DNA of 64,000 bases from a virus (lineage: Duplodnaviria; Caudoviricetes), in IMG/VR virus record IMGVR_UViG_3300050491_000011. One strand, written 5' to 3'. Positions 3,443 to 59,504 of this stretch are shown piece after piece. Under the pieces are notes generated by a model. The model saw nothing but the letters and a program-made list of their open reading frames with translations, was not told the origin of the DNA and did no database searches. How positions within the stretch are numbered: the stretch's first letter is position 1; every line of letters starts with the position of its first letter. The position numbers and the translations under genes were made by a program.

Positions 3443-3475
3443 CATAAGGCCCGGCGTGAGCCGGGCTTTATGCTG
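3443..3475. terminator. Bidirectional hairpin terminator, CATAA...TTTATGC class
   Basis: CATAAGGCCCGGC-GTGA-GCCGGGCTTTATG between convergent genes. Confidence 0.8.
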
Positions 3476-10470: not shown

Positions 10471-10534
10471 GCTGCGTTAATAAACCGCAGTCACACATTA
10501 CCATTTTAGATACACCAACCAAAGGAGAAGTTCC

Positions 10535-22147: not shown

Positions 22148-23116
22148 CTACGCATCAGGCGATAAGATGAAATCCGTGGCGTCAATACTCGCAGCGTCCC
22201 ACGTCCCACCGGCTGGGTTCTTATGGAATACGCCGGCGCTAGCATTATAGCCGTACGCACCAGAAGGACCAACCATCGGGAGACCGGCAACCTCATTGGC
22301 GCCGTTCTTGATCTTGGTCGCGCAGGTAACCGTACCGGCACCGTTCGAACTAAGACCAGCTACCACCTCAATGGCGGCGACGACGGTTCCTACTGGTATC
22401 GTGGCTTTCAAGCTAGCCGCCAATGGACCTTTGGTGGTGGTGTTAGATGTCGCGATCTTGGCAGTTGGTACTGTGCCTGCTTCATAGATCGCGGTAGCCA
22501 ACGCCGTTCCACCCGGAGTAGTGGTCCAATCAGAACCGGTAGCGGAATCGATGCTAATCGGAATAACGGACTGCGCGCCCAGCGGTCCAACCGGCAGACC
22601 TTGCGAGGCCCCCTGGTCGTCGCAGATGTAGAAGTCCCGGTAATCGAAACGGCCATTCAGACTACCTTTGGCTTCAAGACCAAAGGTCATGCTACGACCG
22701 CCGGCGGCGGCGGCGTTACCGATCGACACACCGTTGACCCAACGCTCTACCACACCTGTATTCACGTCGTACGAGAATTCGATGTAAACTGTGTTACCGC
22801 TAGCCGGGAGAGTGTAGTCCAAAAGGACGTAGCTTGTGCCGAAGTAAACGATACCAGCGCCGCCGTTGACGTTGGTTACGATACGGCAGCGATAACCTAT
22901 CCAGATCTTATTGACAGGTGCTTCAAGATACTTGTCTAATGGAATGCTGACGCGTTCGGCGCCAGCGGCTTGCGACTGACTTACGAGCCATCCGTTGACA
23001 ATCGTATTCTGCAACGATAAGTCTTGGTTACGCGTTATTCCGTGAGTGGCGTAGTTAGCCCAGTTCACGTCATTCTGCGGCAAGTGCTCGAAGCCTATAA
23101 CTGCTCTAATTGCCAT
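22148..23116 (-). CDS. Putative tail/receptor-binding protein, FGFD family
   Basis: VIGFEHLP...YIEF.YD...RDFYI.DD.G...PLGAQ...KNPAGG.W. Confidence 0.7.
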   Translation of the reverse strand: MAIRAVIGFEHLPQNDVNWANYATHGITRNQDLSLQNTIVNGWLVSQSQAAGAERVSIPLDKYLEAPVNKIWIGYRCRIVTNVNGGAGIVYFGTSYVLLDYTLPASGNTVYIEFSYDVNTGVVERWVNGVSIGNAAAAGGRSMTFGLEAKGSLNGRFDYRDFYICDDQGASQGLPVGPLGAQSVIPISIDSATGSDWTTTPGGTALATAIYEAGTVPTAKIATSNTTTKGPLAASLKATIPVGTVVAAIEVVAGLSSNGAGTVTCATKIKNGANEVAGLPMVGPSGAYGYNASAGVFHKNPAGGTWDAASIDATDFILSPDA

Positions 23117-38180: not shown

Positions 38181-40367
38181 ATGAGCAAGATCGTAATTGA
38201 CAAAAAATCCGGTATGCCGGATCTGGAACACGTTTCCGCAGTGAAGATCAAAGATCACCTGCTGAACGGTAATGGTTACAGCACCGAAGCCAGCGACATG
38301 CTGAGCGCCCTGCAAAACGGCAGCTTCGAAGCTCGTAGCACCCTGTCCCAGATCGCTGGTGAACTGGCCGGCGTCCTGCAAACCACCGTTGAAAACCAGA
38401 AAGCCGAATACGCCAACCCTGCTGGTCTGGCCGCTGCGTCCTTCCTGAAAGCATTCGGTAGCAAGCCTTCCGAACTGCTGCGCCTGCAAACTTCGATGGA
38501 AGGCAAGTCGCTGACCGACGGCACCCGTTACGCTCACGCTGACGGTTCCGAGTACGACAGCGTCTACTCCACCGAATCGTACGACAACCAGTCGCTGATC
38601 GACCACCTGTCGATTTCGATCGGTCTGAACTACAAGATCGCTCGCCAAGGCCCGGCCATGGAAATGATCTACCGCACTGTGCCTCTGTCCCCAGAGCAAG
38701 GCGGTATCGACATCCAGATCCCGAACCTGTACGTCGAAAACACCCTGCAACACGCCCTGGACGGTTCCGAGTCGGACTTCGGCCTGCGCCGTGTAATGGA
38801 CTCCGCGATCGACTTCACCGTTCTGAACGACAACAGCACTCAGCTGATCCCTGGCTACAACGCCACTTCCGCTGCGAACTTCGTCGCCACTTCGGTTATC
38901 ACTCCGTTCGACTACGTCAACGGTCGCCGCACTGTCAAGACCTCCGGTCTGGCCGTTGGCAAAACCATCAACCTGCTCGGCATCGGCCAGATCGATTCCG
39001 TACAGCGCGTTGGCCAGGCTGACTACACTGAAGCACTGGACCGCAACATCGGTATCGAATCCGTGTTCCTGAGCCTCGGCGCAGACACCATCCGCTTCGA
39101 CACCAAAGGCCTGCCGTACAGCCGCTTCGTGAAGACTCCAGAGCAAGGCGGTCGCGCCATGGCGCTGAACTTCCCGCTGACCACCCTGGAAATCAACAAG
39201 GACACCGTTGCCTACGACGACGCTGCCCTGGCTGGTTCGGTCTTCGGCACCATCGCTACCGGCGACTACAAAGTCCGCCTGAAAACCATCATCAACGGTC
39301 AAGCTGACGTTGAGCGCGGTACTGTGAACATCAACGCCGGTTCGCTGGAAGTGATGTACATCAAGAACGCCGCTGGCGACAAGATCGACGTTGCTGCTGG
39401 CGTTGGTAAGACCATCGTTGATGGCCTCGCTGCACTGACCACCTCTGCCTGGTGGCCTGATGCTCGCCTGACCAACACCAACCATCGTCACCTGGGCCTG
39501 ATGCTCAACGTGCGTAACGTGACCGAACGTCTGCTGACCCGTCAGCGCGCGCCGTTCTTCGTTCCGTACCCACTGAGCGAAAACCGCGACCAGACCGTAA
39601 TGGACTGGTTGACCTTCGCCGTTGGTTCCTACATCAACAACGAAGCTGTCGGCACCCTGATCGGCTACCACGAGCGCCTGATGCGCCTGACTGGCGGCCT
39701 GCGCGGTGAGCTGACCGGCGGTGACTTCGAAATCAACGCACTGCCTATCGAAGGTATTGGCCGCTGGTTGGTCAACCCTTACGTTCAGGAACTGGACGTT
39801 GACCTGATGGAAACCGCTCAGTCGCAGGAAACTGTGGCAAACGTGGAAAACGGTATCGAAGTGCTGGTCAACACCCTGCGCTCCGTGTCCTTCGACATCC
39901 TGCAACGCACCAACTACGAAAACGCCTGCCGTTACATGGACGGTGGCGAGATCACTTCGAAGTGGCGCATTGCCCTGGTTACCAGCAAGAAGATCGAGCG
40001 CTTCATGACGATCCAAGGCGACAGCCGCACCCTGGGTGCCGGCCTGAGCTACCAGCTGGAAGCCGACGTCGACCAACGTCTGTCGGACGTGATGTACCTC
40101 ACCATCGTTCGCGATGGCGAAGGCGTGGACGCTCTGTCCGCCGGTGCAATGCTGTTGACTCCGACCCTCGTGTCGACCATCAGCGTTACCCGTAACAACC
40201 GTCCTGGTAACGAAGCTGTTGTACAGCCTCGCTTCCAGCACTACAACTTCCTGCCGATCATCGTCAAGCTGAACATCAAAGGCGTCGACGAGCTGCTGGA
40301 ACAGACCCTGCCTTTTCGTATCAAAGGCGACGTTAATACCACTGAAGTTGGCGGCACCCAGCCGTAA
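38181..40367 (+). CDS. Major capsid protein (phiKZ gp120-like)
   Basis: 728 aa, extreme codon optimisation, N-terminal region with S-x-E sites (STE36, SFE50, SME107, STE132), position between DnaB and the nvRNAP subunit. Confidence 0.85.
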   Translation: MSKIVIDKKSGMPDLEHVSAVKIKDHLLNGNGYSTEASDMLSALQNGSFEARSTLSQIAGELAGVLQTTVENQKAEYANPAGLAAASFLKAFGSKPSELLRLQTSMEGKSLTDGTRYAHADGSEYDSVYSTESYDNQSLIDHLSISIGLNYKIARQGPAMEMIYRTVPLSPEQGGIDIQIPNLYVENTLQHALDGSESDFGLRRVMDSAIDFTVLNDNSTQLIPGYNATSAANFVATSVITPFDYVNGRRTVKTSGLAVGKTINLLGIGQIDSVQRVGQADYTEALDRNIGIESVFLSLGADTIRFDTKGLPYSRFVKTPEQGGRAMALNFPLTTLEINKDTVAYDDAALAGSVFGTIATGDYKVRLKTIINGQADVERGTVNINAGSLEVMYIKNAAGDKIDVAAGVGKTIVDGLAALTTSAWWPDARLTNTNHRHLGLMLNVRNVTERLLTRQRAPFFVPYPLSENRDQTVMDWLTFAVGSYINNEAVGTLIGYHERLMRLTGGLRGELTGGDFEINALPIEGIGRWLVNPYVQELDVDLMETAQSQETVANVENGIEVLVNTLRSVSFDILQRTNYENACRYMDGGEITSKWRIALVTSKKIERFMTIQGDSRTLGAGLSYQLEADVDQRLSDVMYLTIVRDGEGVDALSAGAMLLTPTLVSTISVTRNNRPGNEAVVQPRFQHYNFLPIIVKLNIKGVDELLEQTLPFRIKGDVNTTEVGGTQP

Positions 40368-53193: not shown

Positions 53194-56055
53194 ATGGCAG
53201 CAGATGACGAACGCGCGCAGAAGAAAGTCTCGCAGTTCAGGAATTTAAGTAAGGCTGATGAACGCGTTCTTGGTCGTCTGGTCACTGACCGTACTGATCC
53301 GAACCGCGGGAAACTTAAGGATATCGATCTCAGTGCCGTAGGGGCAGTAACTCGCCGCACACTTCGTGACGCCACTGATATCCGTAACATCTTCCAAGTT
53401 CAGCCGGACTTGAACATTGCTCGAGAAATTCTGGTCAGCGCTGTGGTATCGCCAGGCGATCTATCGTCGACCACATTGATCTTCAGCAGCAAGATCGACG
53501 GCAAAGAAACGGCACTCACCGCCCAGATGGTGGATGTCATCGAGAACTTCTTTATCAATGAGAAGAACCTCGACAAGAAAATCACTGGCTGGATCGATGA
53601 TGCATTGGTCTGGTCAGGCGCACACCCGATCATGATTATCCCCGAGGCTTCTATCGATCGGATGATCAACGGCGCTCAATCGGCCAGTATGGAATCCGTG
53701 GCGAGCTTTGACGGAGAGTGGACTAATGGATGGTATCGTCCAAAAGGCATCTTCGGTCTAGCTCTACCAACCGCAAAGGGCATCGACTACGTCAGCTTGG
53801 AGTCAAGCCAACGGAGGATAAACACCGCGGATATGGCGGATTATCATACCATCAAGATGATGGGTGGAGCCAAAGAAACGAAGGGCAAGAAGATCTCCCT
53901 TCCTATTAAGGTTACCGACAACTTGGCTGCGTTCCGTATGCCAATGGTGATGGAAGCCAAGCGCACCAAGATGCGTGAATCGGTTTACGGTAATCCTTCG
54001 ATGGAATCCCGCCGTCGCCGTCGGGCTCAGCGTGATGCTGATGCTGCTCAGAATGACAATGGTGAAGGTACTGGCGCTGGCAAGAAGACTGCCGCTCAGT
54101 CTCCAGGTGCTATCCACAGTCAGTTCTTCAAACCCCCACAGGGAATGAAGCGTAGTCGCCTTGAGGTCGTGCCTACTCGTAAGCAGGTCGGTGGCGAAGC
54201 CATCGGTCACCCTCTCGAGTATCACCTCGCTATCGAAGCCGTGATGCCTATCTGCGTTCCGGGTGATCCGACCAACATTGTTGGGTATTTGGTAGCTCAG
54301 GATCAGAATGGATTCCCGCTATCATTCTCACGGCGAGTGGATTATTACAGCGACATCCGTCGCGGTGCAATGGGTGGTGATCAGGTTGGCTCCAGTAGTC
54401 AGGTTTCTGGTGAACTACTCAACATGGCAAACGAAACCCTCAACGGGGGTATCTCTAATGCCAGTGATGCACTGATCGACCGTTTGGTTCAGTTGCACGG
54501 TGAAGTGGTTGAACACGACATTATCGCTCGGATCTCTTCTGGTCTGCTCGGTGGTGAAGTTGAGATCGCTCGTAGCGAACACATCGACAAGCTGATGTTT
54601 GCACGGACCATGAAGAACCAACAAACCATCCTGCTGTACGTTCCTGCCGAACTCATGATCTACATGTGCTTCGATGTGAACGAGTATGGTGTTGGTAAAT
54701 CGATCCTTGACGACGCTAAGGCGTTGGCAGCAATGCGTGCAACTCTGCTCGTAGCCAACATCATCGGCGCTGTGAAGAACGCGATTCCTGGTAAAGACAT
54801 CAACATCACGTTGGACGCTAAGGACGGTGACCCGGTTGGTACGGTTACATTCCTGTCGAACGAAGCGATGGCGCTGTCCTATCACCAGTTCCCAACTGGT
54901 ATCATCAGTGTTCAAGGTTTGGCCGAACAACTTCAGATGTCGGGTTACTCGGTTAACGTAACGGGTCACCCTGCTTATCCTGAAGTATCGACCACCATTA
55001 CGCCGCGTGAAAGCAACTACGTCCCTGTGGACACTGATCTGCTGAACTCTCTGCGTAGTGACCTGCATCGGGTGTTCTCCCTGACGCCTGAGATGGTCGA
55101 TGGCGTGAATGAGCCTGACTTTGCTACAACGGTGGTGGCTAACCACTTGATGCTCCTGAAACGCGTCATGGTGCTTCAGAACATCGCTAACCCACAGATC
55201 ACTGACTACGTGCGTGTCTTTACGTACAACTCGGGGATTCTGCTGGAACAGCTGATGGACATCATCGATAACAACGAGAAGCTCATCCCTGATGAGTACA
55301 AGGAAGACCCGGAGGCTTTCCTCGAAGCTTTCCTGAACTCCCTCGTAGTTAACCTGCCAGCGCCTAGCACTGACAACCTGACCAAACAGATCGAGCTGTA
55401 CGATAAGTACTCTGAAGCGTTGGACAAGATCATTCCTGCCTACGTTACTGAGGAATACTTCCACGGCTACACGAGCGACACGGTCAAGGAAGCAATCCCA
55501 ACAGTTATCGCATCGCTCAAGGGTATCGAGCTGCGTCGTTGGATGCGCGAACGCGGGTTCTTCCGTGAGTTGGATATCTTCGTTAATACCGAAGATGGCA
55601 GCCCACTGCTGAATCTCAACGAAGAAATGAAGCAACACGTTACAGCAATGATCGCCGGCCTCGGCGATTACATCAAGATCGTCGCTGAAGATGCTTATAA
55701 GCATCGTAAGGGTCAGGAACGTCTGAAGAAGCTTGACCAGAAAGTGAAAGATGCAATCGCTGAACTGGGTGCTGAATCGGAAGAAGCTGCTCCTGACTTC
55801 GACGCAGAAGCTCCAGTACCGGATATGGGTGAGCCGGATGCTGAAGAACAACCTGCTGATGATGAGCTCTCCCTCGATGAAGAACCAGCTCCAGAGGAAG
55901 AACCTCTTGAAGAGGAGAAACCTGAGGAGGAGTTGGAAACTCCTGAAGAAGAGAAGCCAACTGAAGAAGAGCCTGTAGAAGAAGAGGCTCCTGCTGAAGA
56001 ACCTACTGAAGAGAAGCCTGCTTCTCCTGAAGATGAGTTCAAGTTGGACCTGTAA
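53194..56055 (+). CDS. Portal protein (phiKZ gp129-like) with acidic E/P tail
   Basis: 953 aa; YG.GKS.L and GHP motifs, S-x-E sites in the N-terminal third, long acidic C-terminus; synteny. Confidence 0.75.
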   Translation: MAADDERAQKKVSQFRNLSKADERVLGRLVTDRTDPNRGKLKDIDLSAVGAVTRRTLRDATDIRNIFQVQPDLNIAREILVSAVVSPGDLSSTTLIFSSKIDGKETALTAQMVDVIENFFINEKNLDKKITGWIDDALVWSGAHPIMIIPEASIDRMINGAQSASMESVASFDGEWTNGWYRPKGIFGLALPTAKGIDYVSLESSQRRINTADMADYHTIKMMGGAKETKGKKISLPIKVTDNLAAFRMPMVMEAKRTKMRESVYGNPSMESRRRRRAQRDADAAQNDNGEGTGAGKKTAAQSPGAIHSQFFKPPQGMKRSRLEVVPTRKQVGGEAIGHPLEYHLAIEAVMPICVPGDPTNIVGYLVAQDQNGFPLSFSRRVDYYSDIRRGAMGGDQVGSSSQVSGELLNMANETLNGGISNASDALIDRLVQLHGEVVEHDIIARISSGLLGGEVEIARSEHIDKLMFARTMKNQQTILLYVPAELMIYMCFDVNEYGVGKSILDDAKALAAMRATLLVANIIGAVKNAIPGKDINITLDAKDGDPVGTVTFLSNEAMALSYHQFPTGIISVQGLAEQLQMSGYSVNVTGHPAYPEVSTTITPRESNYVPVDTDLLNSLRSDLHRVFSLTPEMVDGVNEPDFATTVVANHLMLLKRVMVLQNIANPQITDYVRVFTYNSGILLEQLMDIIDNNEKLIPDEYKEDPEAFLEAFLNSLVVNLPAPSTDNLTKQIELYDKYSEALDKIIPAYVTEEYFHGYTSDTVKEAIPTVIASLKGIELRRWMRERGFFRELDIFVNTEDGSPLLNLNEEMKQHVTAMIAGLGDYIKIVAEDAYKHRKGQERLKKLDQKVKDAIAELGAESEEAAPDFDAEAPVPDMGEPDAEEQPADDELSLDEEPAPEEEPLEEEKPEEELETPEEEKPTEEEPVEEEAPAEEPTEEKPASPEDEFKLDL

Positions 56056-56065
56056 TGTGATTGGG

Positions 56066-56110
56066 GTAGACAGGATCTTAATGGTCCTGTCTACTTCGAT
56101 TTATGCTGCG
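56066..56110 (+). terminator. Terminator after the portal gene
   Basis: GTAGACAGGATC-TTAAT-GGTCCTGTCTAC, then TTTATGCTGC. Confidence 0.75.
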
Positions 56111-56142
56111 TGTTAATTATTCACTATCACACTTGCTTTTAT

Positions 56143-56292
56143 GTTAAAGAGCTTTCTTCCTTATTCTAGAGGAGACGTAGTAACCTAGACTAGAAGTCTA
56201 GGGGACGAAGTCGACGATGGACTAACGTGAAGGAGTCGTAGACGACTGAACCTCTCTAGTTCTTTACTAGGGAAGGGGAGGGGGCTTTTTGC
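56143..56292 (+). ncRNA. Candidate structured ncRNA 4
   Basis: Starts at TATG 56140-56143; 17-bp closing stem 56146-56162/56274-56290 with 6 G-U pairs; internal perfect hairpins. Confidence 0.55.
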
Positions 56293-56359
56293 TGTATAGT
56301 TAAATTTACTTGGGTGATACATTACAAACCCGATATGTAAACCCCCGAGGAACAACACC

Positions 56360-56986
56360 ATGATTACTGGCACGATGAGATTCGCAGCAGGTTGTGTATT
56401 AGCCGCAGGCGGCCTCTTGGTGACGTATAAGGCAGGGATGGACCTGTACGACAAGCATCAAGAGAACAAGAAGATCCGCGCCTATCTAGAGGCGCTTAGA
56501 ATCCACAACAGCTATTACGAAGAAGAGTACAAGCTGTCCAAACACGACTACATGGAACGACTAGCTGTACCGTTTCGTTATGTCCACCGATTTCCTTACG
56601 TCAACTGCACTAAAGCTGAGAAGTACGAAATCTTAATGTGTCCCTTCGGGGTACTCATTAATCACGACGTAGCGCTTATGCTGGCATGCGCTATGGCAGT
56701 TAAGCAGTATCAGTACGACTACCCTAAGATTCTTGGCGGTGGTCCGCTGGTGTGGTCCTCGGCGCAAACACGGTACGTCACTCAAGACAATCTGGAAAGC
56801 GGTATGCGTGACCTCTTCCATGCTGAGTACACGGCCGAACATTACCTCGATCAATGCCTGTACTTCCGTAAACAAATGAAAGAACACAAGGGAGAGGCGA
56901 TAGTCCTCTTCGTCCAGAAACAATCCAAAATCATTCGCCACTTACTCAATGATGATTCATTCGAGCCCGGCGAAGACATGCTCTAA
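56360..56986 (+). CDS. Hypothetical protein with N-terminal membrane anchor
   Basis: GAGGA SD; own TATG at about 56334. Confidence 0.8.
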   Translation: MITGTMRFAAGCVLAAGGLLVTYKAGMDLYDKHQENKKIRAYLEALRIHNSYYEEEYKLSKHDYMERLAVPFRYVHRFPYVNCTKAEKYEILMCPFGVLINHDVALMLACAMAVKQYQYDYPKILGGGPLVWSSAQTRYVTQDNLESGMRDLFHAEYTAEHYLDQCLYFRKQMKEHKGEAIVLFVQKQSKIIRHLLNDDSFEPGEDML

Positions 56987-56997
56987 GGAGAGTAGCA

Positions 56998-57372
56998 ATG
57001 CCAGAAGCTAAAGAAGTACTCAGCCCTGAAGTGGAACGTTTCCACAATAACCTCGAGTTTACACTCGAGTGCATCACGACTCCTGAAACAGTAAAGAAGA
57101 TCCTCGGTGATTTGGCTGCTAAAGGCTACCACCTGGAACTGTGGCAGAAGATGGCACACCCTCCCAGGCTCCCCGGTGACTTTGACTTCAACGAAACTTA
57201 CGAACCTGAGCGCGGTGCTCCGGAAGCAGATGACGGCATCTACGCTAACCTGGGTTATTACATCGCACGATACACCGGTCTGAGCGTCCGTGCTGATCAG
57301 GTGGCGTACCTGATGGGTCAGATGCGTGAAGAGCTTCAGTACGAGTTCTTCTATCGTCCAGTAAGCGCCTAA
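56998..57372 (+). CDS. Hypothetical protein (124 aa)
   Basis: TAAGGAG SD. Confidence 0.85.
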   Translation: MPEAKEVLSPEVERFHNNLEFTLECITTPETVKKILGDLAAKGYHLELWQKMAHPPRLPGDFDFNETYEPERGAPEADDGIYANLGYYIARYTGLSVRADQVAYLMGQMREELQYEFFYRPVSA

Positions 57373-57378
57373 CGGCAT

Positions 57379-57422
57379 ACAGAGCGTGGGGCAACCCACG
57401 CTCTGTTTACTTCTTTTTTTTT
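57379..57422. terminator. Terminator, twin of 35838-35881
   Basis: 12-bp stem, GCAA loop, T-run. Confidence 0.85.
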
Positions 57423-57424
57423 GT

Positions 57425-58105
57425 CTACGCAGCGCGCAAGTTCTGAGGAAGGAAACCCTTCACCATCTTGTTGTTCACTTTGTGCAGACATTCGATACGC
57501 AGGATCTGACCATCGAGGTTGAGGTCAAGGCCTTTGTTCGGAGCGAACTGACGATCGCCAGACTTCCACATCACGTAATCATCAGGCTTGCCGATACCAA
57601 CAGGCCAGATGATGCTCATGTACACGTCCCCAAGGTTCTGGATACGTTTGGCGTACGGTTTGAAGTAACGTTCGACGTAATCCAATTGCTCGATCACGGT
57701 CATCTTCGCCAACTTCGCTGTAGTCGTACCCATTCCAGCAGCGGTAGCTTCCATGAACTGGATCAGACCGGTAGCTGTGGAGACAGGACTACGAACAGAT
57801 GCCGTGAACGCTTCACCGGTTTCCCACGCCATGCAGGCCATGAGATCGTTGATGGATTCTTTCGGCAGACCGAGATTGGCGATAACCTGAGCGAGCTTAG
57901 CGATCTCAGCCGGAGTAAACTTATTACCCCAGCAGACCTTGTTCACACCCAGAGGTTTGCTCGCATCGACAGCGCTCTTGATGAGTGCGTACATTGCGTT
58001 CTGAGAGTTTTTACCCCAGACACCATCAGCAACCCCGCAATTGAAGCCGAGTTGATTCAGGTAGCCTTGGGTTTGCTTGATCGTGAAATCCGAAGGGATT
58101 GGCAC
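57425..58105 (-). CDS. Endolysin-like protein: peptidoglycan-binding domain plus lysozyme/lytic transglycosylase domain
   Basis: LNQLGF..G.ADG.WG..S PG-binding motif; WETG (catalytic Glu) and ATGLIQFM motifs. Confidence 0.8.
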   Translation of the reverse strand: MPIPSDFTIKQTQGYLNQLGFNCGVADGVWGKNSQNAMYALIKSAVDASKPLGVNKVCWGNKFTPAEIAKLAQVIANLGLPKESINDLMACMAWETGEAFTASVRSPVSTATGLIQFMEATAAGMGTTTAKLAKMTVIEQLDYVERYFKPYAKRIQNLGDVYMSIIWPVGIGKPDDYVMWKSGDRQFAPNKGLDLNLDGQILRIECLHKVNNKMVKGFLPQNLRAA

Positions 58106-58116
58106 AGATCTTCTCC

Positions 58117-58740
58117 TTAAATGGTTTTGAGATGAGACAATGCAACTTGCACTGCGTCAAACTCACCAGTCGGAAGGGTGACAAGGTCAACATGGTGGCT
58201 GACCGTATCGCGAGTGTAATCGATCCCGAGGTTCTGAGAGGTGAGACTCAGTGGCTGACCAGCGACTGCGTTGAACGTCATGGTGATTTCCACGGCATCC
58301 AACCCAGCCCACTTGGCCATGGTTTCCACGAACACCTTGCTTTGAGCGAGGATGTTTGCTTTCTCGAGATCGCCGAGCATCTCAGCCCCTGCTTCCGCGT
58401 AATGCGTGTAGTAGGAGTTGACTGCCCAGTATTCCGCCATGATTGGCGTTGCCACGAGGCCACGGGTAAACGTGTCGAACCACTTCGTACCGTTGGGAGC
58501 ATCCAGCAGCGTCCCAGCAGCGTACTGTGCGGCGGTTTCTGGCTTACTAGAGTAAGTCATCACCTGATACTCCAACACGCCCACAGAAGCTCGTGGGCCG
58601 TTACAGACCCAACGTGCTGCGTGGATGCGAGCGTATTGAGCCAGCCCAGGCGCTCGGTACAGAAACAGTCCACGATCCAGCCCGACGTACGGGTTAGTCG
58701 ATTGGACATTGGTAGGAATCTCTGGTACTGGCTGTGTCAT
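58117..58740 (-). CDS. Hypothetical, probably virion-associated protein
   Basis: Lies within the tail-tip operon. Confidence 0.7.
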   Translation of the reverse strand: MTQPVPEIPTNVQSTNPYVGLDRGLFLYRAPGLAQYARIHAARWVCNGPRASVGVLEYQVMTYSSKPETAAQYAAGTLLDAPNGTKWFDTFTRGLVATPIMAEYWAVNSYYTHYAEAGAEMLGDLEKANILAQSKVFVETMAKWAGLDAVEITMTFNAVAGQPLSLTSQNLGIDYTRDTVSHHVDLVTLPTGEFDAVQVALSHLKTI

Positions 58741-58760
58741 CTAAACGTTTCCTTAAAGGA

Positions 58761-59504
58761 TCATGGTAGAGGGTTCCACGCCGCCGTCAGTTTAGTCGGT
58801 ACGTCGTAGTTGCCTTGAGTTGCAGGAATTGCAGAACCGATCGGCGCTTGACTAACACGGAACGTATCGATCCGCAAGCACGTCGAGAACGACATCGCAA
58901 CGATACCAGCCGCACCAGTGGTGATACGGCCAATGTACATTACAGATACCGATTCAGGTGGAGAGTCAGCTCGGCACTGATAGGTCACGATGCCGAACGT
59001 CGAACGAACGTAAACGTAGAACGTCTTGTTCGCTGGCGCTGGATCGATAGCCAATAGGTTGATAGACGTAGGTTGGAGAACATACGGCGTACCCGAGAGG
59101 ATGGTATTCATCACCCGCCCACAGGAAGCCACCCAACCATTGAACGTCCACTGAGCATCGACTTGAGCATCGGTCAACTCATCCACCACACCGTAACTGG
59201 AGACAGGTACGATCGAGATCGGAACCTTCTGCCCCAACTTCTGGTTAATGGTGTTCGCCGTATACGAGCCGATGGTATCCATGTTCTCGCCGTGCGGGTT
59301 ATTTCTTAGCGCGATGTGTGCAGCCAGCGCATCACGCGCTGGCTTAAGCAGACCGAGCCAATCAAACTGATTACCGATCAGATCAGCGGTATCCGCTTCA
59401 AGAGCCAATGCCCGCTTACGAGCGAGCAGCCGCTTGATCTGTTCTTGGTAATGTCTGAAGTACTTGCTGACCAGGAGATACCCGGCCGTAACTGGACCGC
59501 TCAT
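58761..59504 (-). CDS. gp131-like tail-tip paralog
   Basis: H...RNNPHG motif and C-terminal YIG.I.T....R...GSAIP; start at MSGPV from GGGAGG SD. Confidence 0.7.
   Translation of the reverse strand: MSGPVTAGYLLVSKYFRHYQEQIKRLLARKRALALEADTADLIGNQFDWLGLLKPARDALAAHIALRNNPHGENMDTIGSYTANTINQKLGQKVPISIVPVSSYGVVDELTDAQVDAQWTFNGWVASCGRVMNTILSGTPYVLQPTSINLLAIDPAPANKTFYVYVRSTFGIVTYQCRADSPPESVSVMYIGRITTGAAGIVAMSFSTCLRIDTFRVSQAPIGSAIPATQGNYDVPTKLTAAWNPLP

Follow-up and report, generated by a model that had tools for sequence, protein, structure and literature searches.

In an uncultured phiKZ-type jumbo phage, the gap behind the portal gene contains a genuine folded RNA element, some 150 bases long and strongly conserved. 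Its fold and strand, its conservation, pairing-preserving changes in one of its helices (P2), a terminator-type tail and the signals flanking it can be read directly from the sequences compared here. We consider it rather probable that the element is an uncatalogued, clade-specific locus for a discrete, terminator-capped, folded non-coding RNA of the plus strand, of the kind described for the phages phiKZ and 201phi2-1. From the same evidence we infer that the RNA would accumulate as a discrete species, where its 5' end may lie and that it may act in trans.

Locus, fold and conservation of the element

The window, i.e. the whole 64-kb stretch of DNA analysed, is the final part of a 188-kb IMG/VR contig with a completeness estimate of 75%. 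The portal gene that the initial annotation placed upstream of a candidate RNA was recovered at 53194-56055 (Table 1): its protein has its best matches in phiKZ-like jumbo phages (25-34% identity), annotated as phiKZ gp129 homologues, and a gp128-like gene lies 5' of it on the opposite strand, an arrangement also seen in phiKZ-like relatives. The gap between the portal gene and the next gene measures 304 nt and holds the RNA element. Beyond the gap follow several small plus-strand genes without family matches; four of them lie at window positions 56360-58809, between the portal gene and a convergent gp130-like region. The protein of the first has a relative of 74% identity (P0003). In cultured relatives a convergent gp130-like gene stands 40-175 nt past the portal gene, and the locus has no counterpart there. 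As the four small genes occupy a slot that is empty in cultured relatives, they look like an inserted, clade-specific cassette with its own promoter-like box.

Relatives were found by portal-based and neighbour-based scans and by one DNA pattern scan. The locus is present on ten further contigs belonging to three lineages, namely eight close relatives (portal identity 94-100%), L009 (portal identity 82%) and L024. A covariance model built from the locus sequences (R1) found one copy each in G000 and G001. Counterparts in phiKZ relatives, for which the initial annotation had proposed a covariance search, did not appear: R1 had no significant match in the six cultured chimalliviruses pPa_SNUABM_DT01, 201phi2-1, PhiPA3, FLC1-1B, FLC9 and RTH11, nor in a distant uncultured relative, and 16 IMG/VR contigs with a chance 17-mer in common were likewise without a match. 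Nine other jumbo-phage records, of which seven are from cultured phages, lack the element. Neither blastn of the locus against GenBank phages nor a scan of prokaryote genomes for the P4 hairpin sequence returned a match. When positions 55900-56500 were compared with Rfam by cmscan at E <= 10, only four chance-level matches were obtained, with no Rsm/Csr RNA, ribozyme, pRNA or Y RNA among them, and ARAGORN found no tRNA or tmRNA at the locus. Since G000 and G001 carry a single R1 copy each and nothing matches elsewhere, the element constitutes a clade-specific, single-copy family.

Table 1. Features of the portal-gap locus, in window positions
Feature	Position	Strand	Remarks
Portal gene	53194..56055	+	953 aa; homologue of phiKZ gp129
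T1, predicted portal terminator	56059..56108	+	19-bp hairpin (56059-56077 / 56083-56101) and phiKZ-type tail
Spacer	56109..56144	+	Poorly conserved; ends in TATG 56140-56143; possible weak RNA start
P1, 5' strand	56145..56162	+	Pyrimidine-rich; invariant across lineages except for one G-to-A (L009)
P2, long imperfect rod	56165..56221	+	Best-supported part 56171-56215; 3-nt loop 56192-56194
Core (J2/3, P3 and P4)	56223..56272	+	50 nt; 49/50 identical in L009 and L024
P3	56231..56253	+	Loop 56239-56242
P4	56254..56272	+	Loop 56261-56265
T2, P1 3' strand and predicted terminator tail	56274..56295	+	Purine-rich 56274-56291; U5 then GCUGU, 56285-56295
Promoter-like box of the next gene	56293..56343	+	AT-rich box near 56300; ACATTAC 56319-56325
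Next gene	56360..56986	+	208 aa; hydrophobic N-terminus; no family match

Concerning the fold, the RNAalifold consensus is a closed junction of four helices, P1 to P4, in agreement with the closed multibranch RNA described initially. The parts listed for it are there as well: a TATG at 56140-56143 (by a check of the window sequence), a closing stem of 17 consecutive bp with six G-U pairs (56146-56162 with 56274-56290), an 8-3-8 hairpin at 56184-56202 and a 5-4-5 hairpin at 56234-56247. One proposed helix did not stand. Its two strands, CTAGAG at 56166 and CTCTAG at 56254, are present, but the pairing between them was dropped because two of its six pairs are lost in L009 and L024 and because it competes with the invariant local hairpin P4. 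The plus strand folds with a minimum free energy of -60.5 kcal/mol, a value that none of 200 dinucleotide shuffles (-43.9 +/- 3.8 kcal/mol) reaches (z -4.36). The claim that the structure belongs to the plus strand only is upheld by the minus strand, which reaches a z of -1.88 against dinucleotide shuffles, as expected of a closing stem that relies on G-U pairs; because the stem needs these pairs, it is a feature of the RNA and of the plus strand. The copies in L009 and L024 fold less convincingly than that of the window (z -1.55 and -0.35).

The best comparative evidence for the fold comes from P2, a rod in which tandem purine-purine (G.A) mismatches are regularly spaced. All three of its double substitutions are Watson-Crick (G-C to A-U twice, C-G to U-A once), where slid controls gave 0-1 double changes. 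Further, one A.G is swapped to G.A, and two adjacent pairs are replaced by tandem G.A in L009 and L024. Four of the five substitutions in the 3' arm lie opposite substituted positions of the 5' arm (p = 0.004), and the ten substitutions in P2 are all coordinated. The four outer pairs (56165-68 / 56218-21) are broken in L009 and L024. P1 (56145-56162 with 56274-56291) is a pyrimidine/purine stem of 17-18 bp with six G-U pairs. It shows two one-sided changes that keep the pair, some mismatches and one indel, which could be absorbed through slippage of the purine/pyrimidine helix; the G-to-A change of L009 converts a G-U into an A-U pair. P3 and P4 are invariant apart from one C-G to U-G change in P3 that keeps the pair. 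The hairpin loops read AGA, UAGA and UCUUU. Covariation is confined to P2 and to a single branch (window clade versus L009/L024), and P1, P3 and P4 are predicted helices for which folding energy and invariance are the evidence.

No other stretch of the locus is as conserved as the element. Among the eight close relatives only 4 of the 156 columns of positions 56140-56295 vary (2.6%), compared with 22 of 149 in the flanking spacers (13-17%; Fisher p = 1.3e-4), 24.5% of the third codon positions of the portal gene and 21.5% of the next gene overall. The fastest-evolving part of the portal gene is its long, acidic, Pro/Glu/Lys-rich C-terminal tail (window 55700-56055), with 30% variable columns in close relatives and a sequence that is not alignable with that of L009. 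Between lineages the element retains 82-92% nucleotide identity while the protein of the next gene falls to 56%, 42% and 39%. The core, with 49 of its 50 positions identical, accompanies an adjacent protein of 56% identity in L009 and of 42% in L024; under the nucleotide rate of the portal gene, such invariance has a probability of P <= 0.002.

Terminators, start signals and cis-acting alternatives

Mapping of phiKZ transcripts has defined 61 intrinsic terminators whose motif is a hairpin with a TTAT-containing tail (PMC10914365), and the same motif is found in 201phi2-1 as its motif A. In full it consists of a stable stem with, immediately behind it, a pyrimidine, TTAT, G or T, two pyrimidines and GT. 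The contig contains about 20 GC-rich hairpins with a conserved tail of TTAT(G), then C-pyrimidine-G. Examples in the window lie at 3468, 10467, 13803, 15772, 16398, 40453 and 56101, and many have an A-rich 5' flank that extends the stem. A TATG behind a hairpin is nearly always followed by C, and a hairpin-free intergenic TATG often by T. Three other ORF-free spacers in the window end with the same terminator tail. T1, which stands directly behind the portal stop codon, satisfies the motif fully. It behaves like a plain terminator in that its sequence drifts and its pairing is kept: a compensatory change turns an A-U pair into G-C in L004/L006, and the stem of L009/L024 is longer, with compensation.

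The element itself ends in a tail of this type (T2), invariant in all lineages, which fits the phiKZ motif save for TTTT in place of TTAT and is the sole such copy in the contig. The flanks of P1 mimic the A-rich and U-rich stem extension of the contig's other terminators. Since the 3' strand of P1 enters the tail directly, P1 itself would be the terminator stem, and P1 and its tail together are a predicted terminator of the phage type whose loop has grown into a conserved domain of 110 nt. The tail and the A-rich and U-rich flanks are thus shared with the mapped phiKZ terminators (PMC10914365); the stem differs from their short GC hairpin in being a G-U-rich pyrimidine/purine helix, and the loop in being a three-hairpin domain.

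This design invites a purely cis-acting explanation, in which T1 and the element would form a tandem terminator or insulator, or a 3' stabiliser of read-through portal mRNA, and the product would have no job of its own. The closing stem and tail follow the standard terminator design of the phage, the element lies 185 nt behind another terminator in the orientation of a highly expressed late gene, and elongated, combined terminator motifs occur in 201phi2-1, where they were discussed by the authors as regulatory. However, a terminator needs shape and not sequence. T1 drifts with compensation, whereas the element keeps its loops, its junctions and the 50-nt core nearly letter-perfect; loops and junctions as conserved as the stems are not expected of a plain terminator. 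Moreover, a 110-nt insert of three hairpins is needless for termination and would slow the closure of the stem. We therefore judge a purely cis-acting role to be unlikely.

Downstream, the gene at 56360 appears to be served by a start signal of its own. A box consisting of an AT-rich stretch, about 10 nt, ACATTAC and a TAG a few bases on recurs in the contig, with 12 strong copies 35-80 nt before start codons. Scored with a weight matrix built from the 12 other copies, the held-out site at 56319 reaches 16.4, compared with 5.5 for the 99.99th percentile of the genome, and it is conserved in all three lineages. Both the score and the conservation make it very probable that the next gene has its own promoter. 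Copies of the box lie at contig positions 22422, 27436, 61918, 70618, 72570, 79635, 86212, 97169, 103263 and 112260 and at window positions 10495, 40496 and 56319, all on the plus strand and often directly behind a terminator hairpin. The box resembles the phiKZ middle-promoter motif (PMC4666361), a resemblance and nothing further. An own start signal for the next gene had been assumed in the initial annotation, which saw it in a TATG at 56334; the signal stands in the form of the box at 56319, whereas that TATG is missing from five relatives and was given up as the promoter. Sigma-70-type promoters were searched for and none was found.

For the RNA itself the 5' end may lie at one of several places, namely the TATG at 56140, a site at 56131 that weakly resembles the ACATTAC-class box (score -2.6, close to the 99.9th percentile), the conserved TATG in the tail of T1 (56102-56105) or, by read-through of T1, further upstream. 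In the spacer, which varies among relatives, only the last 15 or so bases are conserved. The TATG at 56140 is limited to the window clade and is replaced by TGTG in L009 and L024; in phiKZ data every position of TATG matters. The recurring combination of hairpin and TATG was also considered as a fused terminator and late promoter and was rejected, for the tail belongs to the mapped phiKZ terminator motif (PMC10914365). For the same reason a transcription start in the tail of T1 is only a possibility.

A further cis-acting scheme makes the element the leader or attenuator of the downstream cassette. Transcription would start upstream, P1 and the U-tract would stop most transcripts, and a factor bound to the core would set the read-through into 56360 and onward; an alternative helix (56155-56163 with 56223-56233) would delay the closure of P1. 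Prefix folds of 100-136 nt, which still lack the 3' strand of P1, do contain this helix both for the window sequence and for L009, and its layout is that of an antiterminator/terminator pair. It has changed only in L024, where a G replaces an A and pairing is maintained. Of the 42 phiKZ terminators that lie within 5' UTRs, 34 yield one of two products, a short RNA or a long transcript made by read-through. On the other hand, the conserved promoter-like box of the next gene is placed 3' of the terminator, so that this gene does not depend on read-through, and once the RNA is complete, the fold with P1 is favoured by about 19 kcal/mol over the best one lacking it. The strands of the alternative helix are almost invariant and thus offer no covariation test, and purine and pyrimidine runs pair promiscuously. 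To attenuation we assign a low probability.

The position of the element between T1 and the promoter-like box of the next gene makes release as a discrete, stable small RNA the most likely outcome. In this preferred reading the RNA would start at TATG 56140 in the window clade, or arise by read-through or restart at T1, and would fold as a whole and thereby end its own transcript, P1 being the terminator stem. Its core would span 56145-56291, some 150 nt, and a start in the tail of T1 would lengthen the RNA to as much as about 190 nt. Action would proceed through the invariant P3-P4 core, which may bind a conserved protein or RNA partner, and the downstream genes would be insulated from portal transcription as a by-product. 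Of the initial proposal of a stand-alone RNA, a structured, non-coding element of the plus strand is supported; that it forms a unit of its own is probable in view of purifying selection, compensatory changes, T1, the terminator tail and the promoter-like box.

GGA triplets, coding potential and DNA-level signals

All six GGA triplets counted in the initial annotation are present (56171, 56203, 56219, 56232, 56271 and 56277). They had suggested a sponge of the RsmY/RsmZ type, i.e. an RNA that titrates a CsrA/RsmA-family protein via multiple GGA. The element resembles the RsmY/RsmZ/CsrB family in its size, its many purine-rich GGA triplets and the intrinsic terminator at its 3' end, and six GGA in 153 nt place it in the top 1.7% of genome windows. 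Yet the count is not above composition (6 versus 3.5 +/- 1.6 in composition-matched shuffles, P = 0.11). In the consensus fold no hairpin loop displays any of the six. Four are taken up by P1 and P2, within stems or G.A mismatch motifs, and the tandem purine-purine mismatches of P2 account for several of the triplets. L009 keeps only three. The Rfam models of RsmY, RsmZ, RsmX, CsrB and CsrC do not match even at E <= 10, and a search of the 188-kb contig (estimated completeness 75%) found no CsrA-family gene. We give the sponge next to no credence, and the label, tempting as it is, has been removed as unsupported.

A small protein gene could begin at the ATG at 56141, with 15 aa in the window and, from a GTG start, 29 and 27 aa in L009 and L024. 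The lineages retain a start codon at this position, either ATG or GTG, and conservation extends over the first nine codons. However, this short ORF lacks a Shine-Dalgarno sequence, its length and C-terminus differ between lineages owing to the same substitutions that keep the pairing of P2, and if transcription starts at TATG as in phiKZ, the G would be the first nucleotide and the AUG would be missing from the RNA. The ORF (plus strand, window 56141-56188) is probably a by-product of the conserved P1 strand. The core has stop codons in all three plus-strand frames and no ORF of conserved length. A coding function is thus exceedingly improbable. An antisense ORF of 89 aa (56185-56454) was likewise discarded, being conserved in neither L009 nor L024.

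Could the conserved letters be a site in the DNA, such as an operator cluster or a packaging or recombination signal built of CTAG-rich palindromes? The element contains three palindromes and, within 110 nt (56163-56272), six CTAG, the densest cluster of the contig (corrected P about 1e-5), although CTAG is depleted 4.2-fold there (174 observed versus 734 expected). One 16-nt stretch of the core also recurs once elsewhere, in a divergent promoter region. Against such a site, only two of the six CTAG remain in L009 and L024, four having been lost, yet the RNA pairing is kept there, so that the cluster is not required. The six G-U pairs of P1 would be mismatches in DNA and on the other strand, and only at the RNA level can the swap of A.G to G.A and the replacement of pairs by tandem G.A be understood. 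A 16-nt repeat is ordinary in this genome, being found for 8% of random 156-nt windows. A DNA-level site is consequently very improbable.

The recurring stretch, 56245-56260, is perfectly complementary, over 16 nt, to positions -16 to -1 of the gene at contig position 38747, which encodes 159 aa. These 16 nt, the ribosome-binding site of that gene, are the last of a 61-nt divergent intergenic region (contig 38686-38746; L026 1687-1747) that is 100% identical in G001, a relative of 94% identity. The match has a blastn E of 0.015 and at first seemed significant, but the 8% of random windows with such a match weaken it, and duplex energies do not single it out. L009 carries one change within 56245-56260 (A to U at 56250), and a pattern scan for the antisense target site returned only G001 and one chance match. 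The complementarity is a weak lead, its location on a ribosome-binding site being nonetheless worth noting. There is a small chance that the element is a trans-acting regulator with the core as recognition surface, either as an antisense RNA to the ribosome-binding site at 38747 or with P1 as a conditional terminator that is switched by a factor binding the core. If the antisense version were true, it would be the first known case of a nucleus-forming phage controlling one of its own genes by antisense RNA.

Relation to known phage small RNAs

Short, terminator-delimited RNAs have been described in related phages, 17 in phiKZ and 11 in 201phi2-1, some of them confirmed by northern blotting (PMC10914365, PMC11512511). 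They are derived from 5' UTRs or are intergenic and include a 141-nt RNA before PHIKZ302, sRNA005 and sRNAgp182 (PMC10914365, PMC11512511). The portal-gap element has the marks of such an RNA: an ORF-free unit without a Shine-Dalgarno-led ORF of at least 10 aa, a terminator tail and conservation in relatives. Like the RNAs of phiKZ and 201phi2-1 it belongs to a phiKZ-type jumbo phage, is intergenic, ORF-free and shorter than 250 nt, ends 3' in the phage terminator motif and is conserved. It differs from them in that there is no sequence or covariance match and that it is known from sequence, and in its architecture, as its terminator stem closes the entire RNA and theirs is a terminal hairpin. 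Two RNAs of the Pseudomonas phage PAK_P3, ncRNA1 and ncRNA2, are derived from 3' UTRs, are abundant late and may lack a start of their own (PMC10914365). They resemble the element in lying behind a gene, possibly without an own start, a comparison that presupposes synthesis by read-through of T1; phage and sequence are unrelated, and in the present locus T1, a terminator of canonical form, stands between gene and RNA.

Transcription in phiKZ-type jumbo phages is carried out by the phages themselves within a protein shell. Maps of their transcripts have revealed dozens of short non-coding RNAs, none of which has, to our knowledge, a known function. The portal-gap element offers a clean example from an uncultured lineage, under selection stronger than that on the surrounding protein genes, with comparative support for its fold and with readable boundaries. 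Its invariant 50-nt core provides a defined handle for pull-down and mutational work, and a predicted terminator stem that closes a whole folded domain would be a simple test case for termination by the phiKZ-type polymerase.
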